From an uncultured Candidatus Saccharibacteria bacterium (GTDB lineage Bacteria; Patescibacteriota; Minisyncoccia; Phycocordibacterales; UBA9973), in the NCBI GenBank assembly GCA_964544225.1, contig CAZIZK010000001.1, positions 271,477-335,476 on the forward strand: a stretch of 64,000 nt of DNA, written 5' to 3'. This document shows, piece after piece, positions 7,189 through 64,000 of this stretch. The position numbers were made by a program, and so were the translations under genes. The notes beneath the pieces are model-generated. The model searched no databases. It saw only the letters and a program-made list of their open reading frames with translations, and had not been told where the DNA came from. Positions within the stretch are counted from its first letter, which is position 1. Each line of letters begins with the position of its first letter.

Positions 7189-7189
7189 T

Positions 7190-7747
7190 ATGCCAGCATA
7201 CGTAACAACATTTAACCAAACATTGGCTATAGGGACCATACTAATGCATGTATTCCTTGGACTACTATTGTTCTCATTTGCTTGGAACCCACGCCGTTCA
7301 AATAAATTCCTGATACTTATTGATAAGTATGCTATCGAAGCCTGCTTCTCGATTGCCTTTATCGCTATGATATCGAGCTTGTTCTACTCTGAAATAATAG
7401 GTTTCCCTCCGTGTGAATTGTGCTGGTTGCAACGAGTGCTTATCTACCCACAGGTAATATTGTTTGGTATTATGATGTGGCGCAGACGTATCGACAAGGA
7501 CCGTATCATGAAGGCAAGTGTGGTCTTGGCAGGGTTTGGAACACTCGTTTCTTTGTATCATATATATATTGAACACGGTGGATCATCACCACTACCATGT
7601 GTTATTCCGAACGAAACTACAGTGTCTTGCGCGACACGATATGTATATGAATTTGGTTATGTGAGCATGCCGGTGATGGCACTGACAACATCTCTTACCA
7701 TCCTGGTATTACTTGTGATACACAGGAGCATATCTCGCAGTCGTTAA
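7190..7747 (+). CDS. Disulfide bond formation protein B (DsbB/BdbC family)
   Basis: A multi-pass membrane protein carrying the PCELCWLQR motif characteristic of DsbB/BdbC and a second Cys pair (LPCV). The start is chosen at MPAYV so it does not overlap the upstream gene. Confidence 0.7.
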   Translation: MPAYVTTFNQTLAIGTILMHVFLGLLLFSFAWNPRRSNKFLILIDKYAIEACFSIAFIAMISSLFYSEIIGFPPCELCWLQRVLIYPQVILFGIMMWRRRIDKDRIMKASVVLAGFGTLVSLYHIYIEHGGSSPLPCVIPNETTVSCATRYVYEFGYVSMPVMALTTSLTILVLLVIHRSISRSR

Positions 7748-10150: not shown

Positions 10151-10156
10151 TTTATT

Positions 10157-11431: not shown

Positions 11432-11438
11432 AATATTT

Positions 11439-12116
11439 ATGATAGAAGTAAAAAATTTAACTAAAAAGTTTCAGAATGGTGATCAACTAATTGTTGCTTT
11501 GAATAATGTTAGCTTTTCTGTACCAGAAGGGCAGTTCCTAACAGTGTCTGGTAAATCAGGATCTGGTAAGTCTACATTGCTTTATCAGATGGGTCTACTG
11601 GACATGCCATCTGGTGGGCAAGTTTTAATAGACGGAACTGACTTTGTACAAATGCCCGAGAACGACAGGACTCTGACACGCCTAAATGACTTGGGTTATA
11701 TATTCCAAGACTATGCGATACTACCATCATTAACCGCACTGGAAAATACGGTATTACCACTTCTAATGCAAGGTTACGATATAAAAGAGGCCGAGGAGAA
11801 GGCAACGCAGGCATTGGTAAAGCTCGGTATTTCTGACCGTATGAACAACCTACCTAGCCAGCTTTCTGGTGGCCAACAACAGCGTGTGTCTATTGCCCGT
11901 GCCATAGCCCATAACCCAAAGATAATCTTTGCCGACGAACCCACAGCGAACCTGGACTCGGAAACTTCCGAGCAGGTTATCCAAGCCTTCCTGGCACTCA
12001 ATAAAGAAGGGCAGACTATCATCATGGTGACTCACGAACCCGAGTATGCAAAGCTTGCTCACCGCACCATATTCATGACCGACGGTGCTATAACAAGTGA
12101 CATAATGAACAAATAA
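11439..12116 (+). CDS. ABC transporter ATP-binding protein
   Basis: Walker A (GKSGSGKST), ABC signature (LSGGQQQRVSIARA) and Walker B (IIFADEPT). Confidence 0.92.
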   Translation: MIEVKNLTKKFQNGDQLIVALNNVSFSVPEGQFLTVSGKSGSGKSTLLYQMGLLDMPSGGQVLIDGTDFVQMPENDRTLTRLNDLGYIFQDYAILPSLTALENTVLPLLMQGYDIKEAEEKATQALVKLGISDRMNNLPSQLSGGQQQRVSIARAIAHNPKIIFADEPTANLDSETSEQVIQAFLALNKEGQTIIMVTHEPEYAKLAHRTIFMTDGAITSDIMNK

Positions 12117-48245: not shown

Positions 48246-49142
48246 ATGAATTACGAAAAAGACATACAAAATCAAACAGACAACAAGGCCCAGAATCAAA
48301 TGGACAACCATAAAGGACCCTTGTTTTACAGTGCTTTTTCACAATTCGCTACCAAAAAGACACAGAAGCTAGTCACAGCCTTGTACATGGTTACTGACTG
48401 CATGGAGGCCGACGAGGCGCTAAAGTCAAAGATGCGATCATTGGGCGTTGCCTTGTTATCAGACATACATGACCTAGCCCAGCTACGTGCATCGGACAAG
48501 CATTTTACAACAGCTTCATGCGTGTCTCGTATAAACGAAATAATCTCTTTTGTAGAGATAGCTTTCATCATCGGATTCGTGTCAGAAATGAATACTAATA
48601 TACTGAAGAATGAGTTCAATATATTGCGTTCCGAATTGCTGAAATTCCAGGAGAAGAACCAGACAAATGGTCCAGGTAACCCAGCCTTTGCAAGTAGCCC
48701 TGTAACCCACTTTTCTATCAATAGGGAGTCACTGTCAGTACCACTACCAACATACGAAGAGCCACAATCTTTACCAAAGCCTTTTTGGTCCAATGAATTA
48801 AACAATGTCCCTGATATAGCTGAAGAACCTAAAGGACAAATAAAAGACAATAAGGAGCATATGTCCTTTACAAAAAAGCTTGAGATGTTGTCTTTTAAAT
48901 CTAAAATGAACTCTGTATCTAATGATACACAAAAGTCCTTTACTAAAGAAGAAAAGTCCGATAGAAAGACAAAAATAGTTCAATTAATAAAGGATAAAAG
49001 GGAAGTAAGTATAAAGGACATATCATCGTCCTTTACAGATTGCTCGGAAAAGACAATCCAGCGTGAACTCAATGATCTGGTGCTTAATGGACAAATACGC
49101 AAGTCGGGGGAGAAGCGCTGGTCCCGTTACCACAGTATCTAG
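48246..49142 (+). CDS. Hypothetical protein with C-terminal winged-helix DNA-binding domain (DeoR/HTH-like)
   Basis: C-terminal IVQLIKDKREVSIKDISSSFTDCSEKTIQRELNDLVLNGQIRKSGEKRWSRY resembles a wHTH. The N-terminal 200 aa are unassigned. Confidence 0.45.
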   Translation: MNYEKDIQNQTDNKAQNQMDNHKGPLFYSAFSQFATKKTQKLVTALYMVTDCMEADEALKSKMRSLGVALLSDIHDLAQLRASDKHFTTASCVSRINEIISFVEIAFIIGFVSEMNTNILKNEFNILRSELLKFQEKNQTNGPGNPAFASSPVTHFSINRESLSVPLPTYEEPQSLPKPFWSNELNNVPDIAEEPKGQIKDNKEHMSFTKKLEMLSFKSKMNSVSNDTQKSFTKEEKSDRKTKIVQLIKDKREVSIKDISSSFTDCSEKTIQRELNDLVLNGQIRKSGEKRWSRYHSI

Positions 49143-49149
49143 AACTTTT

Positions 49150-49190
49150 AAAATCCCCCGCAAGCGCCTTAGGCGCTTGCGGGGGATTTT
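49150..49190 (+). terminator. Strong rho-independent terminator
   Basis: aaaatcccccgcaagcgcc-tta-ggcgcttgcgggggatttt is a 17-bp GC-rich stem. Confidence 0.8.
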
Positions 49191-49939
49191 CATAATAGTC
49201 TTGTAATAAAAGCCTTTTATATCCGTCTGTATATATAGGTATCGTGTCTGTGGCGAGTATTGTTTCAGAGGTTTAAAACCTCCGAGAATATCTATCCTAC
49301 ACAGGATATCCACACCATTTTCTATATGATTTTTATAGAGATGTGGTGTATAATGTTTTACGTATAGCACTAGTATATTTTCGTATATTGTGCTATCATA
49401 TAACATCTGTGGATATTGTGTATTTATATACAATATATACAGTACCAGCACTGTTTACAGGCGCTGGGGATCATTGAAAATAGAATACTGTATTTTATTG
49501 ATACCGAATCAAAATACAGGTTAGTTGTTTCTCAACTATTACATGCGCCGTTTCTCGGTATGCAGTAATGTGTTTACAATTATCATTCGTTTCAATTGGT
49601 CTGCTACTTGTACTATATATAGTATATGTGGCGTACCGACATAGCGTCGGAACAAGGCCTTTTTTCGAAACTTATTCAGTTTGTTTAAACATTTTATATT
49701 TATCTTGTGATAGAGCTTGATAAAGATAGAATTTATAAATACTCTGATTAGTCACGCTCGTCTTGATCATATTAATACTACTTTGATAGAGAAGTATGAA
49801 ATACGAAAGAGTTCGGGCAAACGATACACCTTTATAAAGTGTATCGAAGAAAATGTTTATATGGTGCTAGTGTAGGAGTCTGGAATAATCCGACCCTCGT
49901 CGAAGCTAGCGTAACCTATAGATATTTAGTTAAACAATT

Positions 49940-51850
49940 ATGTTAAAATTTATACAATCAAAAACTTTCAAGATCGGAGGTTTCGTTGTAGCTTTTGCTT
50001 TCGCGTTCGCGCTTATGGCAAGTGCAGCAACTTACGTTCCAGTTAAGAAGGGTTCAGACGCGACTGCTGTTATGGCAGTTCAGACTCTAGTTGGTGCTAC
50101 AGCGGACGGTAAATACGGTCCAATGACAGCAGCTAAGGTTATGGCATGGCAGGCAGCTAACGGCTTAACAGCTGATGGTAAGTTCGGTCCAATGTCAGCA
50201 GCGAAAGCTAACGGTGGTTCAACAACAACTACAACAAGTACTGTTGCAGGATGTGCACCAGGCGCAATGTTCAGTGCAACAACTGGCATGCCATGTACAA
50301 CAACTACAACAACTACTACTACAACTACTGGTATGACTGGTGGTGCAGGTAGTGCTACTGTTACTGAGCTTTCAACTCCTACATCAAACACAAAGATTGG
50401 TGAAGGTGATACAAATGCAAAGGTTCTTGGTATCGAAGTAGAAGCTGACAACAACTCAGATCTATCAGTTACATCAATGAAAGTTTCATTCGTAAATGGT
50501 GGTTCAGGTTCAAGTAAGCTAAACCGTTACGCAAAGACTGTATCAATCTGGTACAACGATGCAAAGGTAGGTTCAGCTTCAACTGATGATTTCTCTGAGA
50601 CTTCAGGTACTTACTCAAAGTCAATCTCTATAGCTAACGCTATAGTAAAGGCTGACAAAGTTGGTAAGTTCTATGTTGCAGTAGATGCTATCTCAGATAT
50701 TGATTCTGGAAACACAGGCTCATCAAACAACACATGGACAGTTACTCTAAACAGTACACGTTACATGGATGCAACAGGTGCAGTACTAACAGACTCAACA
50801 GGTTCAATCGCAAACACAGCAATATTTGATACTCTTTCAAGTACAAATGATGTTGAAGCAAAGGTTAACCTAGCATCTGATTCAGTTACATCAAAGACAA
50901 TCAAGGTATCTACAACAAACGACACAAACCAAGTTGAGCTTATGAAGTTTACAATCAAGGCTCAAGGTTCAAAGATGGTTGTTGACCAGATCCCAGTATT
51001 GTTCACAGCTACAGGTACAGCAGCTTCTGATCTAGATCAGATGACTTCTAATGTAACTTTGAAGATCGATGGTCAAACATTCAACGAATCAGTTGTAACA
51101 TCAGCTACAGCTACAGCTACAATTAGTTTCGATGATCTAAACATTGAAGTTTCAGCAGAATCTACTGTAACAGGTACAATCTACGCTGATCTTAACGACA
51201 TCGACACTGGTTTTGCTGAAGGCGACACTCTTACAGCAGCTATCACATCATCTCTTGTAACTACAACAGGTAGTTCAGCAGGTGCTCTTGATATAGAAGA
51301 TTCAAATGGTGACCAGGTTGCAACAGGTGACCGTTCAGGTTCTGCAACAGGTAATGTTCTTACATTCCGTTCAACAGGTGTTAACGCTGTAATGGGTACA
51401 CCATCATACAGCCGTACAACTGATACAAACGGTAAGATAACTTCAGTTACTTACACAGTACCAGTTGCAGTTACTGCTTTTGGTAACACATTGTACATGG
51501 GTCAGTCAGCACAATTCGCTACTACAGCAACAGCATCTAATGCTTTTGCTATAACATTCGAAAATGCTGCTGCTCCAACAACAGCACTTACTTCATCTTC
51601 AACACAATCAATAACTCTATCTAGTTCAAATGCAACTATAGAGACTAATGGTTTCCGTCTAGATGATGGTACAACAAAGAACTTTACTATCACTGTTAAC
51701 CTAACAGACCCAAATGCATATGATGCATCATTCCGTGTTCGTCTAGCGCAAGCTCGCACATTCACAGAAGCATGGTTGTCTACAGGTACAAATAGTACTC
51801 TTCTACCACAAACTGACTACAGAACAGGATTTGAACTTATCAACAACTAA
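49940..51850 (+). CDS. Secreted Thr/Ser-rich cell-surface protein with N-terminal peptidoglycan-binding-like domain and poly-Thr linkers
   Basis: Signal peptide (FVVAFAFAFALMASA). PG_binding_1-like double motif VQTLVGATADGKYGPMTAAKVMAWQAANGLTADGKFGPMSAAKA. Cys-loop CAPGAMFSATTGMPC flanked by T4-T11 runs. A ~500-aa Ser/Thr-rich beta-type region follows. Confidence 0.65.
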   Translation: MLKFIQSKTFKIGGFVVAFAFAFALMASAATYVPVKKGSDATAVMAVQTLVGATADGKYGPMTAAKVMAWQAANGLTADGKFGPMSAAKANGGSTTTTTSTVAGCAPGAMFSATTGMPCTTTTTTTTTTTGMTGGAGSATVTELSTPTSNTKIGEGDTNAKVLGIEVEADNNSDLSVTSMKVSFVNGGSGSSKLNRYAKTVSIWYNDAKVGSASTDDFSETSGTYSKSISIANAIVKADKVGKFYVAVDAISDIDSGNTGSSNNTWTVTLNSTRYMDATGAVLTDSTGSIANTAIFDTLSSTNDVEAKVNLASDSVTSKTIKVSTTNDTNQVELMKFTIKAQGSKMVVDQIPVLFTATGTAASDLDQMTSNVTLKIDGQTFNESVVTSATATATISFDDLNIEVSAESTVTGTIYADLNDIDTGFAEGDTLTAAITSSLVTTTGSSAGALDIEDSNGDQVATGDRSGSATGNVLTFRSTGVNAVMGTPSYSRTTDTNGKITSVTYTVPVAVTAFGNTLYMGQSAQFATTATASNAFAITFENAAAPTTALTSSSTQSITLSSSNATIETNGFRLDDGTTKNFTITVNLTDPNAYDASFRVRLAQARTFTEAWLSTGTNSTLLPQTDYRTGFELINN

Positions 51851-51917
51851 TAATTCATTAGTTTAGATAGTTTGAACTTGATCTAAGGTTAAGTTAACCA
51901 AAAAGCCACCCATATGG

Positions 51918-53975
51918 GTGGCTTTTTGGTTTTTCTGGTATAATATCTGCATGAATATAAAGGATAAAATACTACAATATACATCTTTTGCCCTGGTCTT
52001 ATTGGCCCCATTGATTTATTGGTCACATAGGCTATTCCCATACATATCTTCTAAAACCTATTTCCTGTATGGATCAATAGAAGTTATATTTTTTATTTGG
52101 CTTTATACAGCTATTGTGGATAGGTCATACAGGCTTACTAAGCAAAATATATTATGGTTCACACCAGCACTCTTGTTTGTTTTGTGGATGACAGTTGCGG
52201 GGTTGTTTGGATATAACCTCGAGATGTCTTTTTGGTCATCATTTGCTCGGGGAACAGGGTTGCTCACTTTGTATCATTGTTTAGCTTTTTCAATTGTTAT
52301 AGCTTCTTTAGTAAATAAACATGGTATTAATTATCTAAATAAGTTTATAAATTATTTTTTAATAGGATCTTTTATACTTTCTATTAGTATTTGGCTGGGA
52401 GACAATTTTTTTATAAATAGATTAGAGATGTTAAAGTTTAGTAACGAGGGAGGGTTGATGGGGCAGTCCACACTAGCAGCAACATACCTAACATTTGCTC
52501 TCGCTTTTTCAATTTTTATGTTCTTTAAAAAAGACGTAACAAATAGAATGCGATACTGGCTCGTGTTTGTTATTTTGACAATATTGGCATCCCCACTATT
52601 TTTCAGCCTATTGAATCTATTTAAAGGAACAAGTGTTCTTGGTAGTGCGCGTGCTGCGATACTATCAATACCAGTTATAATTGTGGTTGCGTACACTTTC
52701 TACCTAAGTTTGAGTAATAAGAAAATTATTAGGAATATAGGTATTAGTATGTGCATAATAGGTATCGCAAGCTTTTCTATTTTTTGGGTGCAACTTATGA
52801 ACCCGAGTACGAAAATCCACAATGCCTTTGCACAAGAAGCTCGCGAGACTCGATTTATCTTTTGGGATATAGCTGATAAAGCTTTGAGTACACACCCATT
52901 ATTAGGTTATGGTCCAGAGAACTACATGGTTGCCTTTCAAGAGAATTTCAACCCAGACCTACTTTTGTCACAAAATAATACAGAGGGGTGGGATGATCGT
53001 GCTCATAATATATATTATGATATAGGTGTATCAGGTGGGTATCCCGCAATAGCCTTCTATGCTTTATTTTTATTAAGTACACTTGTTTTAATATATAAAG
53101 CGAAAAATATAAATAAGATTAATCGAGCACAAGCATCAGTCTTAGGAGCGTTAGTTATAGGGTATGTCTTTCAGAATTTATTTGCTTTTGACTCCAATTT
53201 GTCTATTTTTGTCATTTTTATGCTATTTGGTGTTCTTAATTCTTTAGCTTTTTTGGACAAAGAAGGTTATGTGGCATCACCTAAAATTAAAGATAACGAT
53301 AAGTATTTACTCTTATTTGGTATTACTATTTTATTTGCTGTATCTTGGGTATTTTTTACATACATGCCTACCCGTAAATCAAAAGCTTTTGCAGAAACAT
53401 TTGCATCTACCATAGACAAACGTTCACAATTATACCCAGATTTATTAAAAGGTTCTGTCGTTGGACAAGGGTGGGATGTGAGTGGATTGGCCTTTGATTC
53501 ATATAGGGAGTATGTTTCAAATGCAATACAATTAAAAAATAATAAGCAAATATTACCTTATTTAGTAAATAATTTAAATTCATTATTAGATTATTTATAT
53601 AAAGTTGCTGAGAACAATACTACTGATTATCGTTTATACATTACTATTGGTTATTTGGAAAATACACTTACTTATATGTCTGATAGACCGTATACACCAG
53701 AACTCAAAGCCAGATTATTAAGTGTTCTCGATAAGGCTCAGAAGTTAGCACCTAATAACCCCAATGTGTATTGGGGTATAGCTCAGGCTAAGGTATGGTC
53801 TGGAGACTTTGCTGGTACCGAGGAGGCGTACAGGAAAGCTATGGAAGTTGCGCCTAATTTACCAGGGTCTTACACATTATTTATGAAATACGCACAAGCT
53901 TTAGGTAATCAGAAGCTATTTAATGAAATTGCCTCTGAAGCACAGAAGAATGTAGCAGACTTTAAATATAATTAA
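51918..53975 (+). CDS. O-antigen ligase/Wzy_C-family polytopic membrane protein with C-terminal TPR domain (candidate O-oligosaccharyltransferase or polymerase)
   Basis: About 10 transmembrane helices with a large extracytoplasmic loop of the Wzy_C type. The ~230-aa C-terminal soluble region carries TPR-like repeats (NPNVYWGIAQAKVWSGDFAGTEEAYRKAMEVAPN). Confidence 0.6.
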   Translation: MAFWFFWYNICMNIKDKILQYTSFALVLLAPLIYWSHRLFPYISSKTYFLYGSIEVIFFIWLYTAIVDRSYRLTKQNILWFTPALLFVLWMTVAGLFGYNLEMSFWSSFARGTGLLTLYHCLAFSIVIASLVNKHGINYLNKFINYFLIGSFILSISIWLGDNFFINRLEMLKFSNEGGLMGQSTLAATYLTFALAFSIFMFFKKDVTNRMRYWLVFVILTILASPLFFSLLNLFKGTSVLGSARAAILSIPVIIVVAYTFYLSLSNKKIIRNIGISMCIIGIASFSIFWVQLMNPSTKIHNAFAQEARETRFIFWDIADKALSTHPLLGYGPENYMVAFQENFNPDLLLSQNNTEGWDDRAHNIYYDIGVSGGYPAIAFYALFLLSTLVLIYKAKNINKINRAQASVLGALVIGYVFQNLFAFDSNLSIFVIFMLFGVLNSLAFLDKEGYVASPKIKDNDKYLLLFGITILFAVSWVFFTYMPTRKSKAFAETFASTIDKRSQLYPDLLKGSVVGQGWDVSGLAFDSYREYVSNAIQLKNNKQILPYLVNNLNSLLDYLYKVAENNTTDYRLYITIGYLENTLTYMSDRPYTPELKARLLSVLDKAQKLAPNNPNVYWGIAQAKVWSGDFAGTEEAYRKAMEVAPNLPGSYTLFMKYAQALGNQKLFNEIASEAQKNVADFKYN

Positions 53976-53976
53976 T

Positions 53977-54882
53977 ATGTATAAAACAATCGTTACAGGA
54001 GGGGCAGGGTTTATAGGGTCGCATATTGTGGACGCTCTTGTGGATCTTGGCCACGAGGTTCATATTGTAGACAATATGTTTGCAGGTAAAAAAGAAAATA
54101 TTAACCCAAAGGCCGTGTTGCATACTGTAGATATTCGCGATTTGGATAGATTAAAGGACCTATTTCATGGTGCTACCTATGTTTTCCACCAGGCTGCGTT
54201 GCCACAAGTGCAATATTCTATCGAGAATCCGATCGAAACAAATGAAGTAAATGTAGTTGGTACATTAAATGTATTGGAAGCTTGTAGGGTAAATAATGTA
54301 AAGAGGGTAATATTTGCCTCTACTTGTGCAATCTATGGTAGTAGTGAAATACTCCCTTTTATCGAAGACACACAATCCTCACCTATGTCTCCATACGCAA
54401 TTCATAAATATGTTGGGGAGTCGTATATGAAATTGTATTCACAAATTTATAATCTGGAAACAGTTTGTCTAAGGTATTTCAATGCATATGGAAATAGGGC
54501 AAGTGTAAACGGATCGTATCCATTAGTAATTGCAAAATTTCTAGATTCAAGGAAGCAAAACAAGCCACTACTAATAACAGGCGATGGAAACAATACGCGT
54601 GATTATGTAAACGTTCTAGATATTGCACGGGCCAATATTGTGGCAATGAATTGCGACAATGTGGGCAAAGGGGAGGTGATCAATATTGCTTGTGGTAAAG
54701 AATACTCGGTAAATCAAATCGCCGAATTAATAGGCGGGGAAATTGAATATATTGCACCTAGGATAGAGCCAAAAAAGGCTGTGGCTGATATTACAAAAGC
54801 AAAAAATTTGTTGGGTTGGGAGCCAAGCATCAAGCTCGAGGATGCCTTGTTAGAATTGAAGAAGTATAATAATATAGCTTAA
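53977..54882 (+). CDS. NAD-dependent sugar-nucleotide epimerase/dehydratase (SDR family, GalE-like)
   Basis: [10 protein letters not shown] Rossmann motif and YxxxK catalytic pair (YAIHK). Confidence 0.85.
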
Positions 54883-54883
54883 T

Positions 54884-55945
54884 ATGGATAAAATAAAGAA
54901 AGCATTGATAATAGGTATCACAGGGCAGGATGGGTCATATCTAGCCGAGTTTTTGCTTGCAAAGGGCTATGAAGTGCATGGTATTATTCGTCGCTCATCG
55001 AGCTTTAATACAGCGCGCCTCGATAAAATATATCAGGATCCACATGTAGACAATCGCAATCTAATACTTCACTATGGGGATCTATCAGATTCATACAGTC
55101 TACACAATATAATAAAGAAGGCTCAGCCGGATGAAGTCTACAATCTGGGTGCGCAGAGTCATGTGCGTGTCAGCTTCGATATACCCGAATACACAGCCGA
55201 TATAGATGCACTAGGAACCTTGCGGTTGCTTGATGCAGTGAAGGAAAGTGGCTTGCCGATACGCTTTTACCAAGCAGGGTCTTCTGAAATGTTCGGTAAA
55301 GTCCTAGAAACTCCCCAGAAAGAAACAACTCCTTTTAACCCAGCAAGTCCCTACGGATGCGCGAAAGTTTTCTCGCATCATATTTGTGTCAATTATCGTG
55401 AGTCATATGGAATGTTTATCTGTAACGGCATATTGTTCAATCACGAGTCACCTCGTCGTGGCCGAACTTTCGTCACAAAGAAGATAGTAGAAGGTTTGGT
55501 GGATATAAAGCTCGGCAAGAAAGACAAGATATTTCTCGGCAATCTAGATGCAAAGCGTGACTGGGGTTATGCTCATGACTATGTAGAGGCTATGTGGCTC
55601 ATGCTTCAGCAGGATACTCCCGATGACTATGTAATAGCCACAGGCGAGACACACTCTGTCCGCGAGTTTGTGGAATATGCATCTTCACTTATTGGGTACA
55701 AGATAAACTGGAGTGGATTTGGGCTTGCTGAAGTGGGTACAGACGAGTCAACAGGTAAAGATATTATAAATATCGACGAGCAGTATTACAGACCAAGCGA
55801 AGTTGACTTGTTATTAGGTGACCCAAGTAAGGCAAAGAGTAAACTAAACTGGGACACAAAGGTAAAATTCAAAGATTTGGTGGACATAATGATGAAGGAA
55901 GAGTTCGAGGAACGTGGTTTTAAAAGTAGTGATTATATAAAATAA
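54884..55945 (+). CDS. gmd: GDP-mannose 4,6-dehydratase
   Basis: [36 protein letters not shown] is the canonical Gmd N-terminus. Also YGCAKVF and NHESPRRG. Confidence 0.95.
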
Positions 55946-55946
55946 T

Positions 55947-56885
55947 ATGAACAAGGATTCAAAGATATATGTAGCAGGACACAGGGGGCTTGCAGGTTCT
56001 GCAATAATGCGTGGTTTGCAAACTGCTGGTTATACAAACATAGTAGTCCGGACACATGCCGAGCTAGACTTAACTTCTGAAGACGCTGTTAAAAACTTTT
56101 TTATTTCTGAAAAGCCCGAGTATGTTTTCCTTGCTGCTGCAAAAGTGGGTGGAATCAATGCTAACAATACACAACCAGCTCTCTTTATAAGGCAAAATTT
56201 ACAAATACAAACCAATGTTATAGATCAGTCTTATAAAAATAATGTGAAGAAGTTATTGTTTCTTGGCAGTTCTTGTATTTATCCAAAGCTTGCACCGCAA
56301 CCAATGAAAGAAGAGTGTTTATTAACAAGCGAACTTGAGCCTACAAGTAGGCCATATGCAATAGCAAAGATAGCAGGTATTATAATGTGCCAGTCTTATA
56401 CTAAACAGTACGGCATGCCTACTATAAGTGTTATGCCAGCCAATTTGTATGGGGAAAATGACAATTTTAATTTAGAAACATCTCATGTTATGCCGGCGCT
56501 TATTCGTAAATTCCATGAAGCAAAAATAAATAATACAAAAGAGGTGGTAGCATGGGGTACAGGTAGTCCGATGCGTGAGTTCCTACATGTAGATGATTTG
56601 GCATCTGCATGTATATTTCTAATGAATAATTATAATGATCCAGAGATTATCAATATTGGTACAGGCGAGGATGTAACCATCCGTGAACTAACAGAAATGG
56701 TAAAAAAGATTGTCGGATATGAAGGCAATATTGTGTGGGATTCATCGAAGCCCGATGGTACTCCAAGGAAGGTGATGGACGTATCTAAACTGCATAATTT
56801 AGGGTTTAGACACACCACCTCGCTTGAGCATGGTATACAATTAACTTACCAATGGTATAAAGAAAATCAAGGATTAAGACAATGA
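55947..56885 (+). CDS. fcl: GDP-L-fucose synthase (GDP-4-keto-6-deoxymannose 3,5-epimerase/4-reductase)
   Basis: [21 protein letters not shown] and YAIAKIAG are typical Fcl/WcaG motifs. It lies directly downstream of gmd. Confidence 0.9.
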
Positions 56886-57772
56886 TCGTAGTTAGGTTAA
56901 AAGGTGGGTTAGGTAATCAGATGTTCCAATACGCATTGGGCAGGATTTTGTCTATCAAAAATAATACCGAACTAGTATTTAACATCGAAGCCTACGAAGA
57001 CAAGAGCCCTAGACTTTTTAAGAGCAATTTTGCAATGCGTGACTATGATTTGGGTGTTTTTAATATAAAAGGTCGCATTGCTAAAAAGTCTGAAATACCA
57101 TTGCTATATAGGATGTATGGTAAAGGTAAACTGATGGTCCTAATAGATGCTGTTAGGCGAAGAATCTTCAAGCATAAAGCTCAAGAGTTATATACTCAAA
57201 GGTTTAATCCTTATATGTTATCACTAGGCAAGGACTCATATATAGATGGTTTTTTTCAGTCACCAAAATATTTTATTGGATATGAAGATATTATTAGGCA
57301 AGATTTTAAATTAAGAAATGAACCTAGTGATAATATAAAACAAATGTATAAAGATATTTCGAATCATGAGTCTTTGTGTATGCATGTGAGGCGTGGAGAT
57401 TTCATAGGTAACCCTAATCATGATGTTTTAGATAGTGATTATTATAATAAAGCTATTTCTCTTTTAGAAGGCAAGACAAATATTGATACAATTTATATTT
57501 TTTCTGATGATATACAATGGTGCAAAGATAATATGCATTTCAATTACCCGACAGTATTTGTATCTGAGGGGTATGCTGGACTAAAAGGGGAGGGGCATAT
57601 GTACCTTATGAGTGCCTGCAAGAATTTTATAATACCAAACAGTACTTTCTCTTGGTGGGGAGTTTGGCTTTCGGAAAACAAAAACAAGAAGGTGGTGACC
57701 CCAAAGATATGGACAAAAGACCCTAATAACAATATGGGGGATTTAATATTAGAAGACTGGATAAGGATTTAA
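56882..57772 (+). CDS. Alpha-1,2-fucosyltransferase (glycosyltransferase family 11)
   Basis: GT11 motif [14 protein letters not shown], motif II HVRRGDF and C-terminal [13 protein letters not shown]. Confidence 0.85.
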
Positions 57773-57777
57773 TTTTT

Positions 57778-58614
57778 ATGATTTTTAAAAAGTTTCATAA
57801 AATAAATTCAAATTTTTGTGAAAATATATTTTTACACAAAGTTGTTGATATTTTACATAAACATTTAGACGATAATTATAATCTTATTTTAACTAATAAT
57901 GAAGATATTGATTTACTTGATTTTAATGACAAGTGTATAAATATTGTTATATTTATTTCAGATGAAGAGGGGATTATTCCAGTTTGGGTAAATAAAGTAG
58001 ATTTTATTTTTAGAACTTACGGAAATAATGATATTTGCGATTATAAAAAGATATTTCCAATTCCTTGTGGTTTTGTTGGCCCTTTTAAAATTGATGGTCT
58101 AGATAATACTTATTTAGGAGAATTAGAAAAGACCCCTTTAACTCAAAGAGAGTATGATTTATTTTATTCTGGTCAAAAAGCTCTAAATAGAATAATTTTC
58201 ATGTTTTTTGTAAATAGAATTAAGAATAAATTTAATTCATTTATAAATCAGACTATAGGTTTCAGAAAGGGATTATCAATACAAAAATATTTTTCAATTA
58301 TGAATAATTCAAAAATTGCCTTGGTCCCAAGAGGTGCAGTTATTCCGGAATCTTTTAGATACATGGAAGCTTTTGAATCTAATTGTATTGTTATTACAAG
58401 TTACCCAAGGCATTTAAGTAAATATAATATGTGGTATTATGAAAATTCCCCAGCTGTTTTTATAAAGAATTGGTGGAGTTTAAAACCAAGATTAATTGAT
58501 AAATTATTATCAAAAGAAAACTTGGAACTTTCTTTTGAAAAAAATAAGAAGTATTATGATGAATACCTGTCTACAAAAGCTGTTGCAGATTATATAATAA
58601 ACAATTTAAAATAA
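57778..58614 (+). CDS. Exostosin (GT47)-like glycosyltransferase (tentative)
   Basis: C-terminal half has LFYSGQ...SKIALVPRGAVIPESFRYMEAFESNCIVI, resembling the exostosin/GT47 FCLxPxG....RxxEAxxxGC[IV]PV core. The gene is very AT-rich. Confidence 0.4.
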   Translation: MIFKKFHKINSNFCENIFLHKVVDILHKHLDDNYNLILTNNEDIDLLDFNDKCINIVIFISDEEGIIPVWVNKVDFIFRTYGNNDICDYKKIFPIPCGFVGPFKIDGLDNTYLGELEKTPLTQREYDLFYSGQKALNRIIFMFFVNRIKNKFNSFINQTIGFRKGLSIQKYFSIMNNSKIALVPRGAVIPESFRYMEAFESNCIVITSYPRHLSKYNMWYYENSPAVFIKNWWSLKPRLIDKLLSKENLELSFEKNKKYYDEYLSTKAVADYIINNLK

Positions 58615-58615
58615 T

Positions 58616-59443
58616 ATGAATAAATTAGTCTCAGTAATATTACCTACATACAATGGCTCTAGTTGGATCCAAAGGGCTATAGAAAGCGTTATAAGCCAAT
58701 CCTACAAGGATTGGGAGCTTATCGTGGTAGATGATGGCTCTACCGACAATACAGGGCAAATAGTGGCCAATATGAGCCAAAATGACAGTAGGATCAGGTA
58801 TATAAAGAACGATGTAAATTCAGGTATCCAGAAGACATTGAATAATGGCCTAAACGTGGCCAAAGGTGAATATATTGCCCGTATTGATGACGATGATTAT
58901 TGGGTAGATATTGATAAATTACAGAAACAAGTAGACTTTATGGATGGCAATCCTGACTATGTGTTGGTAGGCACAGGAGTGATTATTGTAAATGAAAAGG
59001 GTGATGAACTTTTTAAATATCTAGTACCAGAAACTAATGAACAAATAAAGAAGCGTCTTTTGGGGAAGAACTGTTTTGTACACTCAAGTGTAATGTTTAA
59101 AAAGAGTGCGGTTATGCAGTTTGGTGGTTATAGTGAAGGCGTAGAGGAGAAGCATTTTGAGGATTATGATCTATGGTTGAAGCTCGGTACTATCGGCAAG
59201 CTCGCGAACCTACCAATATATGGATTGAAGTATACTATGCGTGAAGGTAGCCTAAGCGCAGTAAATAGAGTAGAAGTATTCCGTAAAATATTGAAGCATT
59301 TAAAGAAGTACAAGAGCTCCTACAAGGGGTATTGTGGAGCAATAATTCGTGCTTATGCAAGATTTGTCGTATATGGATTATTTTTAAAATCCCCAATTAA
59401 GTTTTCTTTAAATAAAATTATAAAGTTTTATAAAGAGCATTAA
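58616..59443 (+). CDS. Glycosyltransferase family 2
   Basis: VSVILPTYNG......VVDDGSTDNT and DDDD/ED motifs of the GT-A fold. Confidence 0.85.
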   Translation: MNKLVSVILPTYNGSSWIQRAIESVISQSYKDWELIVVDDGSTDNTGQIVANMSQNDSRIRYIKNDVNSGIQKTLNNGLNVAKGEYIARIDDDDYWVDIDKLQKQVDFMDGNPDYVLVGTGVIIVNEKGDELFKYLVPETNEQIKKRLLGKNCFVHSSVMFKKSAVMQFGGYSEGVEEKHFEDYDLWLKLGTIGKLANLPIYGLKYTMREGSLSAVNRVEVFRKILKHLKKYKSSYKGYCGAIIRAYARFVVYGLFLKSPIKFSLNKIIKFYKEH

Positions 59444-59450
59444 TTTGTGG

Positions 59451-60374
59451 CTACCTTATAATTTTCTTTATATATGTACGTGCTAACGATTTTAGAATCT
59501 CTATTTTAACGATAGATAGTAAGTAAATATATTTTATAAGTAGATTACCAGATGGATATTGGTTTGCAAGTTTATTTATTATTACTAGACTCTTCTTTAT
59601 AATTATATATAAATCTTTTAGATGTAATTCTTTTTTTGAGTGGAATTTATAAAATATCTCTGAATTATCAAGCGAGCCCGTATAGTATTTGTAATTGTCT
59701 TCGAATATAGTATAAACACTTTTATTTATGTTTTCTTTTGCTGTGTTTGAATAATTCGATCCATGCTGTCTATAATCTAAAAGTATCTTGTGTATATTAA
59801 AACCTGCATGCTTTTTAATGGCTTTTGCCAAGAAGGCAAAATCTTCACAGGGGACTTCTGGGTAGTGGGGGACAGTATTTAATATTTCTTTCCTAAACAT
59901 GACACTCGGGTTACAGAAATATATGTCACTAATAAATCTCCAAGCTAGGCGCAAGCTATTACTTGGGTGAAATACTTTAATACCATCACAATTGTTGCCA
60001 AATAATTGATACCCTCCACCTACTATGTCTATATGTTTATTTTTATATAAAAAGTCTACCTGAGTTTCAAGCCTGTATGGCCTTTGAATATCATCAGCAT
60101 CTGCTTTGGCTATATAAGCACCTTGAGCTATGTCTAGGCCTGTATTTGACGCACCATGGATACCTTTATTGTATTTATTGTTTACTAATATAACTCTTTT
60201 ATCTTTTTGAGCCCAATTATTTATAATATCTACCGAATTGTCCGTAGAGCAATCGTTTATGATTATCAATTCAAAATTTGTATATGTTTGATTTAATATA
60301 CTTTGTATAGTTTCATCTAAATACAAGCTGGCATTATAAACTGGCATTATTATACTTACTTTTTCTTTTGTCAT
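59451..60374 (-). CDS. Glycosyltransferase family 2
   Basis: VSIIMPVYNA......IIINDCSTDNS and ADADD. Confidence 0.85.
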   Translation of the reverse strand: MTKEKVSIIMPVYNASLYLDETIQSILNQTYTNFELIIINDCSTDNSVDIINNWAQKDKRVILVNNKYNKGIHGASNTGLDIAQGAYIAKADADDIQRPYRLETQVDFLYKNKHIDIVGGGYQLFGNNCDGIKVFHPSNSLRLAWRFISDIYFCNPSVMFRKEILNTVPHYPEVPCEDFAFLAKAIKKHAGFNIHKILLDYRQHGSNYSNTAKENINKSVYTIFEDNYKYYTGSLDNSEIFYKFHSKKELHLKDLYIIIKKSLVIINKLANQYPSGNLLIKYIYLLSIVKIEILKSLARTYIKKIIR

Positions 60375-60380
60375 AAATAA

Positions 60381-61136
60381 TTAAAAAAATCTTTTTATTA
60401 TTAAACTGCTTACTAGTATAGGATTCTTTGTCTGGTATAATAATTTTTTATAAAATTTAAAAAGCCCTACAATTTGCTTCGTCCGGCTCTTGCTATTATT
60501 TAGAGGGTGTCTTCGTATATGAACTAGTACTTCATCTATATAATCTATGTTGTATTTATTTGATATTCTGAGCCACATTTCCCAGTCTTCAGCATAGCGT
60601 AAACTTTCATCAAAAGTCCCCACATGATCAAACACATCCTTTTTAATCAAAACACAACTAGCACTACCTAATATTTTATTTGCTTTCAGTAGTGCTGAGT
60701 AGGCGTTCCTCCTATAATTATTATCAATATTTAAAACCTTTTCCGTGCTAGGCCCACCATTCTCATTAATAGTGTCATATCTACCATACACAAGCCCCAA
60801 GTTATCAAATGGGCTATTATTAAATACCTCCATTTGTTTTGCTAGCTTATTACTTACCCATACGTCATCTGCATCCAAGAATGCTATATATTCTGCTTCT
60901 GAATGGCTAAGGCCATTATTACGAGCACTATTTGGTCCAGCATTGTTTTGTTTTATATATACAATATCTATGTTAAGTAGTTCTTTGCAAGAGGCAATAA
61001 CCTGGGCCGTGTTATCTGTCGAACCATCATCAACAACAAATACTTTATTTACAGCTAAAGTTTGTTCGCTTACTGACCATAAAGCCTCTTTTAGGTATTT
61101 ACCATTATTGTATGTTGGGATTATTACATCTATCAT
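60381..61136 (-). CDS. Glycosyltransferase family 2
   Basis: IDVIIPTYNN......VVDDGSTDNT and LDADD. Confidence 0.85.
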   Translation of the reverse strand: MIDVIIPTYNNGKYLKEALWSVSEQTLAVNKVFVVDDGSTDNTAQVIASCKELLNIDIVYIKQNNAGPNSARNNGLSHSEAEYIAFLDADDVWVSNKLAKQMEVFNNSPFDNLGLVYGRYDTINENGGPSTEKVLNIDNNYRRNAYSALLKANKILGSASCVLIKKDVFDHVGTFDESLRYAEDWEMWLRISNKYNIDYIDEVLVHIRRHPLNNSKSRTKQIVGLFKFYKKLLYQTKNPILVSSLIIKRFF

Positions 61137-61137
61137 A

Positions 61138-62103
61138 TTAGTACCAATTTTTTATATTTATAATATCTTGATATTTATCCAGTGGTATACCCGGGATATC
61201 TTCATTGTAGAATATTTTACAGAATAGAGCATATCTATCTAGGGCACAATGAACATAAGATTCACTGACATTTTTTACAGCTTCACGATTATTGTAAAAG
61301 TTCATGCCCGACCCTACGCAGGAAAAGTGTACGAGCTTGTTACCAAAGTCTATTTTATAAGGGGTAGGGAAGTTGTTGATGTTTTTAAATATATTGTCTC
61401 TTTTGCCGTATTTATCACAACCACCCACATCATCTTCTGATAGGTGATGTATACGTGCACCATTATATATCATTTCAAACATAACTTGATCAAAAAAGTC
61501 CAATGTCTTGAATGTATACAATGGGTATGAACCATATATTTTTTGTGCGAATTCACTGAGTGGAAATTTTCCTAAGAGTTTTTTGATTTGGTATTTTATA
61601 TGTTTAAATATAAATGAAGGATTTAAATCTGATATTTTTAAAACTGATTTTTGAAGATTTATTTTGTCTTTTTTAAATAAAATACAATTAGTTTGGCATA
61701 GATCAGCAAGATGCCTAACATCATCTCTTTCACAAGGGTTATGGTGATAATTGCGTATTGGTCCTATGATGTCATAATCCTTTGCTAGGGTTAATATTTC
61801 ATCAATAATGTTTTCACGAAATATAGTATCACTATCAAAATGAATTATTTGATTATGTTCTGTTTCCAATATTGCCTTTTCCCACAACATAGCTGTGCCA
61901 CGATGACCGTATTTAAAAGCATTTAAAATATTTGCTTCAATTTCAATAAATACATTATTTGGGTGAGTATCTATATACTTGAAGTCTTTTTTAGTGCCAT
62001 AAATATGTACTTTGTAATTATGGTATTTATGAAAAGAGTTCAGTGCAATTTTACCGATTTTGCCACAATTTACTATCTCTGTAAATATAAATGTATTATC
62101 CAT
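61138..62103 (-). CDS. Putative nucleotide-sugar-dependent glycosyltransferase (GT-A-like, DxD), family unassigned
   Basis: IIHFDSDTIF DxD-like motif. It sits inside a glycosyltransferase cluster, and no stronger match was recognised. Confidence 0.3.
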   Translation of the reverse strand: MDNTFIFTEIVNCGKIGKIALNSFHKYHNYKVHIYGTKKDFKYIDTHPNNVFIEIEANILNAFKYGHRGTAMLWEKAILETEHNQIIHFDSDTIFRENIIDEILTLAKDYDIIGPIRNYHHNPCERDDVRHLADLCQTNCILFKKDKINLQKSVLKISDLNPSFIFKHIKYQIKKLLGKFPLSEFAQKIYGSYPLYTFKTLDFFDQVMFEMIYNGARIHHLSEDDVGGCDKYGKRDNIFKNINNFPTPYKIDFGNKLVHFSCVGSGMNFYNNREAVKNVSESYVHCALDRYALFCKIFYNEDIPGIPLDKYQDIINIKNWY

Positions 62104-63082
62104 GGATTATTTTTTTAAATTTATTTAATATTTTATACACAAACTTTGTTTTTTCTGGGTATAGGGTAACTTCTACTTTATCAAGATTATTTTTATGATC
62201 ATTTATGTACTCACAAAGCATAGGGAATATCTGGTATTTATCCAAGATTAGGTTTTTTGCTATTTTCAATTCACCTTCGGATCGTTCATAAAGGTCACTT
62301 TGGATTATATATTTTATTGTATTTATCGCCTCATCTGTATTATCTATATCTATTACAGATAAAGTATCTTTTGTAAAATAATCATATATATTAGTACACC
62401 CATAGTATATAGGGTATGCCCCAGCAAGGAAAGTATCTGTCAATTTTTCTGTCCAATAATCATTTGTAGAGCTATTTTCAAGTACTATGTGATATTTATA
62501 CGGTGCTATACCATCCCATTTGTCATCTAAGGTATTTGACCCTAAGCCATAAATATCTATTTGATCACCCAATTCATTTTTGAGTTTATTTAGGAAATCA
62601 TGTCTTTTTTTATGTCCTTTTGTAAATGTCTTATTCGATACAATAATAGAGGCTAATTTTGTTTTAATAGGTGTTGGTAAGGCTTTTAATTCATCATAAG
62701 TTTTATAATATTTATCTTCACCACTTTGCATCTTGTAACCAATCCACCAAGGTAATGCTTGTTGTTGGTGGATAATATTTGGGTGCTTGATTCCTTTCTG
62801 ACATGTTACTATTGCACCAAATTGTTTGGTGAATTGATGGTTGTATTTATGTACAGATTCGGGTTCGGTTGTTATTAGTACAATATTTTCCTTTGCAACT
62901 TTTGTTCCTTCTTCTTTTTCTAATCCACCATACACAACCCACAGATCGCACTCATCAATATCTTCATTGATGTAGAATTCACAATTACCCCATACTGGAT
63001 TCAAAGAGGGAAGCTGTTTAATGAATGGTTTACCACCACCAGCTGTAGATATTTTAATTTTAAAAATATTTTTCTCATTCAT
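62096..63082 (-). CDS. Alpha-1,3/4-fucosyltransferase-family glycosyltransferase (GT10)
   Basis: IVSNK...R..FLNKL.....IDIYGLGSN....YKYHIVLENSSTNDYWTEKLTDTFLAGAYPIYYG matches the GT10 FucT motifs (compare YKFNLCFENTQGYGYVTEKI...PIYWG). The start is taken at MNEKNIF. Confidence 0.7.
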   Translation of the reverse strand: MNEKNIFKIKISTAGGGKPFIKQLPSLNPVWGNCEFYINEDIDECDLWVVYGGLEKEEGTKVAKENIVLITTEPESVHKYNHQFTKQFGAIVTCQKGIKHPNIIHQQQALPWWIGYKMQSGEDKYYKTYDELKALPTPIKTKLASIIVSNKTFTKGHKKRHDFLNKLKNELGDQIDIYGLGSNTLDDKWDGIAPYKYHIVLENSSTNDYWTEKLTDTFLAGAYPIYYGCTNIYDYFTKDTLSVIDIDNTDEAINTIKYIIQSDLYERSEGELKIAKNLILDKYQIFPMLCEYINDHKNNLDKVEVTLYPEKTKFVYKILNKFKKIIHG

Positions 63083-63084
63083 AA

Positions 63085-63840
63085 TTAATTTTTTGTAAAC
63101 CAAAAACAACCACAACCGTATCGTTGGGAATCTGCTAAAGATTTTGATGCATTATATATGATACCTTCTTCCTGCCCATTATCGGGGATTAATGTAAACT
63201 CTTTTAATGTAAGCTCAGAAAAATATTGCATTATTTGATCATATGAATATATGCGATGCGCATTAAATTGAACCATGGGTTTACCTATAGGGCTTACAAA
63301 TAAAAGATTTCCATTCGGAGCAAGAACTCGCACCAACTCTTTTATTGATTTAATATCTGCATCTGGGTCTATTGGGTCACCATATCGCCCAAGCCCAATA
63401 TGCTCTATTGTGTGCATGCAAGATATTGAATCAACACTATTGTCCTCGAATGGCAATGCAAGTAAGTTTCCTTCTTTAGAGGACAAATTGTCCAGCTTTA
63501 CATTGGCTGGTCTATAATCATAAAACTCTACAGGTATAAAAGCGGATACGATAGTGGAAAAATGTAATGTCGAAGATACATCTATATGTTTAGTTGGTTT
63601 AGTTTTTGATAAAATTCTTGCTGCCCAGGCTGGATGATAGATATAGTGTGCATCGAATAATGTTTTCTCTGTTTTATCAAAGAATTGTGGACATCGATTT
63701 TTCCAATCTACACTAAGTCTAGGATTTTTTTTAGCTTCTTTTTGGAATAATCTAAACTCTTTTAAGAAAGAAATATAAAGATATGTTTCTTTAATAAACT
63801 TCTTGATAAAACTTGGAATAATTTTTTTTATTATTTGCAT
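63085..63840 (-). CDS. Class I SAM-dependent methyltransferase-like protein (DUF268-type)
   Basis: LPFEDNSVDSISCMHTIEHI and LAPNGNLLFVSP resemble methyltransferase motifs. It may O-methylate the glycan. Confidence 0.5.
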   Translation of the reverse strand: MQIIKKIIPSFIKKFIKETYLYISFLKEFRLFQKEAKKNPRLSVDWKNRCPQFFDKTEKTLFDAHYIYHPAWAARILSKTKPTKHIDVSSTLHFSTIVSAFIPVEFYDYRPANVKLDNLSSKEGNLLALPFEDNSVDSISCMHTIEHIGLGRYGDPIDPDADIKSIKELVRVLAPNGNLLFVSPIGKPMVQFNAHRIYSYDQIMQYFSELTLKEFTLIPDNGQEEGIIYNASKSLADSQRYGCGCFWFTKN

Positions 63841-63843
63841 AAA

Positions 63844-64000
63844 TTATAACTTTAATGTTTTTGTAATTGTTTTACTAAAATTTTCAGGCAGGAATACCTT
63901 GTACTGATCACTTTTTAAAAATTGCTCGATAGCTTTTGTGTACATATTATATTTATTCTCATCTATTGATTCTAGAAATTCCAAAAGTTCTCTATCGTTT
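63844..64000 (-). CDS. 3' end of a gene extending beyond the window (partial; hypothetical)
   Basis: Only one reverse frame is open across 63847-64000 (…NDRELLEFLESIDENKYNMYTKAIEQFLKSDQYKVFLPENFSKTITKTLKL*), with its stop at 63844-63846. Confidence 0.3.
   Translation of the reverse strand, partial: NDRELLEFLESIDENKYNMYTKAIEQFLKSDQYKVFLPENFSKTITKTLKL

Follow-up and report, generated by a model that had tools for sequence, protein, structure and literature searches.

A Thr-rich wall protein, a WaaL-like transferase and a fucose glycan cassette: a candidate slg-type O-glycosylation locus in a CPR bacterium

O-oligosaccharyltransferases (O-OTases) such as PglL, TfpO and PglS transfer glycans en bloc from undecaprenyl pyrophosphate to serine or threonine residues, with relaxed glycan specificity. 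Dedicated O-OTases are encoded beside the gene of their acceptor, as in the pilA-tfpO and comP-pglS pairs, and the sequon of ComP sits in a disulfide-bounded loop. In Geobacillus and Paenibacillus, the slg clusters bring together an S-layer gene, a Wzm/Wzt transporter, a methyl cap, a WbaP-like primer and a Wzy_C O-OTase (PMC2943079). WsfB and PglL have a C-terminal tetratricopeptide repeat (TPR) domain, and WsaB has a separate upstream TPR protein, WsaA (PMC2943079). Here, we analysed a 64-kb stretch of contig CAZIZK010000001.1 (the window, meaning the whole stretch at its full length), in which the gene for a Thr/Ser-rich secreted surface protein (THR) is followed by the gene for a membrane enzyme of the Wzy_C/WaaL family with a TPR domain (Wzy_C-TPR) and by a cassette of sugar and glycosyltransferase genes. 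We propose that this locus of a presumed monoderm bacterium of the candidate phyla radiation (CPR) encodes an slg-type system for the en bloc O-glycosylation of THR with a fucosylated and probably methylated glycan, a proposal to which we give an even chance of being right. The surface coat of the CPR host would then probably be a strain-variable glycoprotein. For CPR bacteria, our literature search turned up no paper on O-antigen-ligase/O-OTase proteins, on fucosyltransferases or on the glycosylation of S-layers; PMC12911398 mentions phage-borne nucleotide-sugar genes only.

By analogy, the closest known systems would be the slg clusters of Geobacillus stearothermophilus NRS 2004/3a and Paenibacillus alvei CCM 2051T (WsaB/WsfB). 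Like these, the locus belongs to a monoderm host (presumed here) and has a surface-protein gene adjoining the cluster, nucleotide-sugar genes, several glycosyltransferase genes, a methyltransferase gene (the cap enzyme in G. stearothermophilus) and a Wzy_C transferase gene, while Wzm/Wzt and a WbaP-type Bac_transf primer are encoded in a near relative (locus L081, described below). Compared by their described architecture, the Wzy_C and TPR parts are fused here as in WsfB, and one related locus (L062) has a separate 267-aa TPR protein encoded between the surface-protein gene and Wzy_C, as with WsaA/WsaB. Unlike in the slg clusters, the putative acceptor is from a new family, with a PG_binding_1 anchor, a Cys-loop/poly-Thr linker, three beta-sandwich domains and no SLH-type anchor; GT11 and GT10 enzymes predict a fucosylated glycan in place of their rhamnan or Gal-ManNAc; and the host is a CPR bacterium. 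PglL, TfpO (PilO) and PglS of Neisseria, Pseudomonas and Acinetobacter share the Wzy_C domain, and PglL also the TPR (PMC2943079), but they come from diderms and act on pilin or periplasmic acceptors, and no pilin is encoded here. The O-OTase features that the locus does have are the Wzy_C domain with its TPR module and the adjacent gene for a secreted protein rich in serine and threonine (S/T-rich), to which we ascribe the acceptor role. Gene context makes THR the likely acceptor, and protein the likely target of transfer, on our best reading.

The Wzy_C domain (PF04932) of the membrane enzyme scored 50.6 bits (cutoff 31.7) over aa 240-381 of the 685-aa open reading frame (ORF) 51918-53975, and 50.4 bits when translated from the ATG at 51951. 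This ATG is the true start: the GTG at 51918, from which the sequence-only reading had begun the gene, was rejected since it lies inside the terminator at 51896-51931 and since the homologs and P0001 begin at the ATG. An AlphaFold2 (AF2) model made with 33 homologs was confident (pLDDT 89.8, pTM 0.90), and Foldseek returned WaaL (7tpg_B) as its top match and its sole solved membrane-protein match, with an E-value of 2e-5, a probability of 1.0 and a TM-score of 0.59 on the target. The C-terminal ~190 aa of the model matched TPR proteins instead (the OGT TPR domain, MamA and CTPR). A Pfam scan of the single sequence detected no TPR, but the family profile matched TPR proteins (CTPR) at E 7e-27, and the C-terminal TPR domain proposed earlier is thus upheld by family profile and model rather than by Pfam. 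Solved WaaL was not among the 60 listed of 98 matches at E<=1 when the family profile was compared with the sequences of solved structures, and Pfam and NCBIfam scans of the protein gave no O-OTase- or PglL-specific family.

Hydropathy, the helices of the model and the positive-inside rule predict a 12-helix WaaL-like transmembrane (TM) core with the N-terminus inside, followed by a 13th TM helix (452-470) that would place the TPR domain outside the membrane, so that the question of whether this domain is extracytoplasmic is answered in the affirmative by prediction. A large loop (284-353) is predicted to face outside as well. Conservation reaches 0.67-0.81 in the outside loops versus 0.25-0.62 in the cytoplasmic loops (four of five at 0.25-0.39); R100, R301, E345, D349 and H352-N353 (DRAHN motif) are invariant in the family, while 90% or more of its sequences keep R234 and H290. 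Compared at fold level, WaaL (PDB 7TPG) has the same 12-TM core, conserved Arg residues and a large loop on the outer side that holds a conserved His; unlike WaaL, Wzy_C-TPR has the 13th helix and the ~190-aa extracytoplasmic TPR domain, and its CPR host is regarded as having no lipid A-core. As modelled, the enzyme thus presents an outward-facing WaaL-type active site beside a protein-binding module, and we consider it a candidate O-oligosaccharyltransferase or ligase. CPR bacteria are considered to be monoderms that lack lipopolysaccharide (LPS), so the classical acceptor of WaaL would be missing; family profiles found no LPS genes among the window ORFs scanned.

THR scored 34 bits with the Pfam family PG_binding_1. 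A signal peptide, this domain and a linker are followed by three beta-sandwich domains, and the linker reads ...STTTTTST-VAG-CAPGAMFSATTGMPC-T11-..., with Cys105 and Cys119 bounding the loop. The sequence-only reading had seen the peptidoglycan-binding domain, the Cys loop and the T11 tract correctly, while its T4 run is really T5. Threonine and serine make up 28.3% of THR, which is the sole S/T-rich protein of the window and the only one there to carry the Cys-loop motif. The idea that poly-Thr is encoded by a repeat prone to slippage was rejected, as its codons are a mix of ACA and ACT. The AF2 model of THR (pLDDT 81) shows the three beta-sandwich domains, whose fold neighbours are the calf and thigh domains of integrins, Gram-positive adhesins, cohesins and accessory domains of glycosidases. 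At 7160-7747 lies a gene of the DsbB family, whose product fits the extracytoplasmic disulfide that the Cys105-Cys119 loop needs.

More than 200 THR homologs were found, nearly all in CPR bacteria and annotated merely as "peptidoglycan-binding". Of 120 of them, 101 carry the Cys-loop motif, either as C-x3-G-x-[FY]-S-x-TTG-x2-C (15 aa) or as CPNGMTLASNC (11 aa), and linkers of the family hold one to three such loops plus poly-Thr of variable length. Signal-peptide proteins with peptidoglycan-binding domains and similar predicted structures are among the top-expressed genes in three Paceibacteria metatranscriptomes, and one such highly expressed gene (2079 nt) comes after genes for an extracytoplasmic function (ECF) sigma factor and a DUF5667 protein (PMC10936435). 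This module matches the arrangement at two related loci, L051 and L061, in which genes for an ECF sigma factor and for an anti-sigma-like protein (of the DUF5667 family in L061) stand ahead of the surface-protein gene.

To place the pair in a wider context, we compared the neighbourhoods of Wzy_C-TPR homologs at 78 loci of species-representative genomes, nearly all of them from CPR lineages, with homologs of 34-56% identity forming the orthologous set and those below 33% the distant set. The orthologous loci keep the order FtsK(-), helix-turn-helix (HTH) protein(+), THR(+), Wzy_C(+). Of the 33 orthologous loci with enough upstream sequence, 32 have an S/T-rich ORF (450 aa or longer) no more than 1.6 kb from Wzy_C-TPR, and an S/T-rich secreted protein flanks the Wzy_C homolog in 13/29 distant ones (22-29% identity; e.g. 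Staskawiczbacteria and Wolfebacteria). The gene link between THR and Wzy_C-TPR therefore holds beyond the genome of the window. In most of the 13 distant loci the S/T-rich protein is from a different family, of 1100-1200 aa, and only 52 of the 251 ORFs of at least 450 aa across all loci are equally S/T-rich, most of them adjoining a Wzy_C gene. The secreted 1100-1200-aa family (23-28% S/T) was seen in L050, L055, L058, L061, L062, L065, L067, L069, L073 and L074.

Downstream of the conserved pair, the cassette is hypervariable. GT11 and one GT2 gene are its commonest members, gmd/fcl are present in roughly one in four of the 44 mapped loci, and other cassettes hold GT6, GT17, FkbM/CmcI methyltransferases and DegT aminotransferases. 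Among the mapped orthologous loci, Wzm/Wzt is encoded in 8 and Wzx in 7, and a Bac_transf primer gene stands at the far end of the cassette in 8; loci with primer and exporter genes include L013, L015, L019 and L030. In related loci, Wzm/Wzt with a Wzt_C domain adjoins methyltransferases, a likeness to E. coli O8/O9a (WbdD cap, carbohydrate-binding domain of Wzt) which suggests, by analogy, that export in these loci is gated by a chain cap; unlike in O8/O9a, L081 has Wzt_C but not the methyltransferase of the window. GT6, to which the blood-group A/B transferases belong, accompanies GT11 in L013, L015, L006 and L012, and a GT17-like enzyme with DUF3431 accompanies GT11 in L003, L004, L005, L036 and L037. 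GT6, GT17, GT11, GT10 and GT47 are families best known from eukaryotic glycans. Two or three tandem Wzy_C(-TPR) paralogs are present in L004, L009, L014, L016, L018, L023, L035, L036, L043, L050, L055, L058 and L067, which suggests several ligases differing in acceptor or glycan preference. In one sub-clade (L026, L029, L030, L032, L033 and L034), a ~290-aa protein with a Gly_rich_2 domain is encoded on the opposite strand directly after Wzy_C, between it and the cassette.

The cluster had been taken to end at 63840, but it runs on, with the C-terminus of a second GT10 protein (GT10b) encoded from 63844 to the window end. A Logan contig 100% identical to the window (L001) has the second GT10 as its next gene, in a fragment that scores 56.6 bits with Pfam GT10 and shares 68% identity with its L031 counterpart, also a second GT10. 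The downstream context was taken from L081, which was reached via the 94%-identical homolog P0241 and which has the order THR, Wzy_C, epimerase, Gmd, Fcl, GT11, three GT2, DxD protein, GT10, GT10b, Wzt, Wzm, Bac_transf. There, Wzt combines ABC_tran with Wzt_C, Wzm is an ABC2_membrane protein, Bac_transf has 423 aa, no Wzx is encoded and the cluster ends at an IS200-like transposase. An exporter and an initiating phosphoglycosyltransferase, which the sequence-only reading had proposed to look for beyond the window end, are thus found at the equivalent place in a near relative, and by their predicted families the genes of L081 make up a complete ABC-transporter-dependent, undecaprenyl-linked glycan pathway.

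In a comparison of 48246-54882 and the cassette, the cassette proteins of the window are 83-97% identical to those of L041/L081, and 93-97% to those of L081 (Gmd 97, Fcl 97, GT2c 97, DxD protein 94 and GT10 93%), and identity to the near relative is 94% for RecA, 97% for EF-P and 86% for FtsK, with low values for Wzy_C-TPR (56%), the epimerase (61%), the HTH protein (69%) and THR (70-80%). From these sequence comparisons, either the cassette would have been exchanged horizontally in recent times or the THR/transferase segment would be diversifying. The GT47-like gene is absent from L081/L041, and the methyltransferase gene is absent from L081, otherwise collinear, where a 65-aa remnant stands at its site; both are gains or losses specific to the strain and are expected to alter the glycan.

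In the mechanism that we propose, the steps from priming to export follow from gene families and from synteny in the near relative, and the transfer to THR from gene context only. The Bac_transf phosphoglycosyltransferase, encoded past the window end as in L081, would prime undecaprenyl phosphate, and the GalE-like epimerase would provide a UDP-sugar. The chain would be lengthened in the cytoplasm, at the membrane face, by the GT47-like enzyme, the DxD protein and the three GT2 enzymes; Gmd and Fcl would produce GDP-L-fucose, from which GT11 would add alpha-1,2-linked and the two GT10 enzymes alpha-1,3/4-linked fucose; and the DUF268-type methyltransferase would methylate the glycan, possibly as a chain-terminating cap. 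The finished undecaprenyl-PP-glycan would be exported by the Wzm/Wzt ABC transporter, in which Wzt has the Wzt_C glycan-binding domain. Outside the membrane, the Wzy_C enzyme with its WaaL fold would move the glycan en bloc to Ser/Thr residues of THR, which would be an abundant surface protein held non-covalently on peptidoglycan, while the TPR domain would hold the protein substrate. The Thr-rich, disulfide-looped linker of THR would offer the likeliest acceptor sites, and the outcome would be a fucosylated glycoprotein coat that varies between strains.

We favour transfer to protein because an ABC-dependent pathway needs no Wzy, because the Wzy_C-TPR ortholog is kept over varied cassettes and because no LPS is expected; the predicted outward TPR domain and the recurring S/T-rich neighbour add to this. 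Several observations pull the other way. Neither sequence nor fold separates WaaL ligases from O-OTases; relatives alone show the exporter and the initiating transferase, and neither lies within the window; and a strong terminator between THR and Wzy_C makes them separate transcription units. The block of RecA, FtsK, HTH, THR and Wzy_C is conserved in a Nomurabacteria-like group, so that the synteny may in part be phylogenetic inertia, and in the Ca. Yanofskyibacterium genome of PMC10936435 the Wzy_C gene is not adjacent to the gene of the highly expressed protein with a peptidoglycan-binding domain. The poly-Thr tracts vary in position and length among THR homologs, and fold searches with THR gave generic beta-sandwich and adhesin domains and no S-layer protein. 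Since a Pfam scan found no SLH or CWB2 domain in THR either, the S-layer option of the sequence-only reading is not supported for this protein.

If Wzy_C-TPR were a ligase for a non-protein acceptor (peptidoglycan or a membrane glycolipid), THR would be a mere neighbour wall protein, an explanation that we find unlikely though far from negligible; the product would then be a cell-wall polysaccharide or a lipoglycan, an LPS-like O-antigen substitute, which we hold to be just as unlikely. WaaL, the only solved structural relative, has a lipid acceptor, no O-OTase-specific family emerged from the profile scans, and the separate transcription units fit this view, as does the predicted binding of THR to peptidoglycan, given that co-location could reflect a shared cell-wall theme. 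However, the ligation of wall polymers in monoderms is done by LCP-family enzymes and not by Wzy_C, an extracytoplasmic TPR is a protein-binding module that is also found in the O-OTases WsfB and PglL (PMC2943079), and a non-protein acceptor leaves unexplained the S/T-rich secreted proteins, some of them non-homologous, beside distant Wzy_C homologs. A protein acceptor could also mean a general O-glycosylation system with many secreted substrates, such as type IV pilins and adhesins, THR being one of them or none. We consider this rather improbable: enzymes of the PglL type are often general, several related loci have tandem Wzy_C-TPR paralogs and the Yanofskyibacterium genes lie apart, but THR is the sole S/T-rich protein and the sole Cys-loop carrier in 64 kb, and its recurrent single-partner pairing resembles pilA-tfpO and comP-pglL, and also sgsE-slg (PMC2943079). 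The "general" O-glycosylation pathway first suggested for the locus is therefore no better supported than a dedicated one.

That Wzy_C-TPR might be a Wzy-type polymerase of capsule or exopolysaccharide repeat units, as the breadth of the Pfam Wzy_C family (which also takes in polymerases) and the 56% identity between near relatives typical of Wzy genes would allow, seems very improbable to us. The orthologs precede ABC-dependent Wzm/Wzt cassettes in 8 loci, including L081 without Wzx, and ABC-dependent pathways polymerise in the cytoplasm; other orthologs precede Wzx (7 loci), with differing glycosyltransferase sets, whereas a Wzy is specific to its repeat unit, and in the near relative Wzy_C diverges despite highly similar cassette proteins. 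Since Wzy_C-TPR is independent of exporter and glycan type, a ligase or O-OTase of relaxed specificity fits where a Wzy polymerase does not. We thus retain the O-glycosylation of THR as our preferred reading.

An ORF check of the window recovered every gene listed for 49940-63840 by the sequence-only reading, with all of its ORFs in place, and profile searches back nearly all of the families. Wzy_C, GT10 and GT11 lie above their Pfam cutoffs, and GT47 is supported at family-profile level. Genes 51951-59443 on the + strand are spaced by -4 to +5 nt, with 1 nt from the Wzy_C stop to the epimerase start, which makes the Wzy_C gene a member of the glycan operon. A minus-strand operon with GT10b, the methyltransferase (MT), GT10, the DxD protein, GT2c and GT2b converges on it at a distance of 7 nt. 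GC content is 0.30-0.34 across the cassette (56-64 kb) versus 0.35-0.45 in the first 52 kb of the window. Housekeeping genes flank the locus (RecA, EF-P, SSB, S6, MetRS and FtsK), and the names Nomurabacteria, Paceibacteria or Patescibacteria carried by homologs indicate a CPR host. The positions of all features are collected in Table 1.

Table 1. Features of the glycan locus and its upstream region (positions in the window)
Feature	Position	Strand	Basis or remark
Non-coding leader/promoter region of the THR gene	49143..49939	+	conserved blocks in alignment of related loci
TATCCACA box, DnaA-box-like	49307-49314	+	conserved in alignment
TATAAT, -10 box	49349-49354	+	conserved in alignment
Invariant GATCATTGAAAA	49469-49480	+	alignment of related loci
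Covarying hairpin with conserved UAAUACCAA-like loop	49488-49519	+	pairing and covariation
THR, Thr/Ser-rich secreted peptidoglycan-binding surface protein, 636 aa	49940..51850	+	candidate glycan acceptor
Intrinsic terminator, THR/Wzy_C junction	51896..51931	+	16-bp stem with 8 GC pairs, then T-run
TGGTATAAT extended -10-like box	51936..51944	+	6 nt upstream of the Wzy_C-TPR ATG
Wzy_C/WaaL-family membrane enzyme, 674 aa; first gene of the + strand glycan operon	51951..53975	+	Pfam, AF2, Foldseek
GalE-like NDP-sugar 4-epimerase/dehydratase, SDR family	53977..54882	+	Pfam Epimerase 208 bits
gmd	54884..55945	+	Pfam GDP_Man_Dehyd 494 bits
fcl, GDP-L-fucose synthase	55947..56885	+	NCBIfam GDPFucSynFcl and Pfam Epimerase
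GT11 alpha-1,2-fucosyltransferase-like	56882..57772	+	Pfam Glyco_transf_11 102.7 bits vs 23.9; NSTFSWWG motif
GT47/RXYLT1-like glycosyltransferase	57778..58614	+	family profile
GT2a glycosyltransferase	58616..59443	+	Pfam Glycos_transf_2 132 bits
GT2b glycosyltransferase	59451..60374	-	Pfam Glycos_transf_2 126 bits
GT2c glycosyltransferase	60381..61136	-	Pfam Glycos_transf_2 113 bits
DxD protein, invariant H-F-D-S-D motif	61138..62103	-	166 CPR homologs
GT10 alpha-1,3/4-fucosyltransferase-like	62096..63115	-	Pfam Glyco_transf_10 48.5 bits vs 23.9; motif YKYHIVLENSSTNDYWTEK
SAM-dependent methyltransferase	63085..63840	-	Pfam DUF268 52.8 bits, Methyltransf_11 31.5 bits
Second GT10 (GT10b), 3' end, last 51 codons, straddles window end	63844..63999	-	translation matches C-terminus of L001 fragment

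Beyond the scores in Table 1, the epimerase reached 173 bits with the NCBIfam galE model, under the model's cutoff, and Fcl reached 490.9 bits with GDPFucSynFcl over its full length (cutoff 500); by sequence, Gmd and Fcl are both encoded and together predict a GDP-L-fucose pathway. Score and motifs assign the fucosyltransferases to GT11 and GT10 (the GT10 translation shows ...ENS...YWTEK), with donor and linkage predicted. The GT47-like label stands for the family profile and not for the single protein, which alone scored 18.7 bits with RXYLT1_C, below the cutoff of 27. An exhaustive search gave 609 relatives, and in an alignment of 32 sequences (the window protein and 31 relatives) RXYLT1_C was found in 25 and Exostosin_GT47 in 16; the profile matched solved GT47 structures (8q8i, 8avq and 8asa at E 1.6e-7, EXT1 at 5e-5) with coverage of the C-terminal half only. 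Searches of Pfam, NCBIfam and PDB sequences gave the DxD protein no assignment, even with a family profile of its homologs, but weak GT2 matches in 7 of 28 homologs, and one homolog with GT2 family domains (precomputed Pfam), suggest that this protein is probably a divergent GT-A glycosyltransferase. From its families, the DUF268-type methyltransferase is a candidate chain-capping enzyme.

The THR gene is preceded by a non-coding gap in 34/34 related loci measured (357-1153 bp). The hairpin in this region is paired in 91.6% of the alignment cells versus 31-46% in slid controls, with compensatory changes in 8 of its 10 pairs, and the region is a candidate structured 5' leader of ~580 nt, or a small RNA. 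No Rfam family was detected in the window or in the leader upstream of THR, and no tRNA in the window. A terminator hairpin equivalent to that at the THR/Wzy_C junction was present in all 24 related loci folded, and in many related loci the Wzy_C start codon follows a TATAAT/TATACT box by only a few nt. Since the -10-like box of the window is 6 nt from the ATG and leaves no room for a Shine-Dalgarno sequence, a leaderless-type mRNA is suggested, and we predict such a start for the Wzy_C-TPR gene. At 8864-12116, an HlyD / FtsX-permease / ABC-ATPase set of the MacAB-like tripartite efflux type is encoded in this presumed monoderm; it has no link with the glycan locus and, being MacAB-like and ~40 kb away, was rejected as its exporter.

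Ultra-small CPR bacteria of this class cannot be studied in pure culture, and for the question of how they build their surface and recognise partner cells the locus offers testable candidates: a presumably abundant wall-bound protein family, a conserved transferase and a hypervariable glycan cassette at a fixed position. Its parts and its logic are known from Firmicutes and Proteobacteria, while the lineage and the acceptor family are new, and if THR is glycosylated, the S-layer-type O-glycosylation paradigm would extend from Firmicutes to CPR bacteria. We tentatively suggest that Paceibacteria-type CPR bacteria might carry a "protein-anchored O-antigen", in which a fixed site would write a strain-specific glycan on a major peptidoglycan-bound surface protein, and this coat would be the main determinant of host attachment and phage susceptibility in these episymbionts. 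Its architecture, in an equally speculative outline, would have four constant parts (the regulator, the leader RNA with its structure, the surface protein and the WaaL-like transferase with TPR), with a horizontally exchanged low-GC cassette downstream. Cassettes with GT11, GT10, GT6, GT17 and GT47 could make blood-group-like or Lewis-like fucosylated glycans. If THR is glycosylated, strain-level variation in glycan genes would be surface-antigen variation, and fucose and methyl groups would be lectin and mass-spectrometry handles for sorting or imaging cells. For glycoengineering, too, the Wzy_C-TPR enzymes could be attractive, as O-OTases that recognise new sequons.

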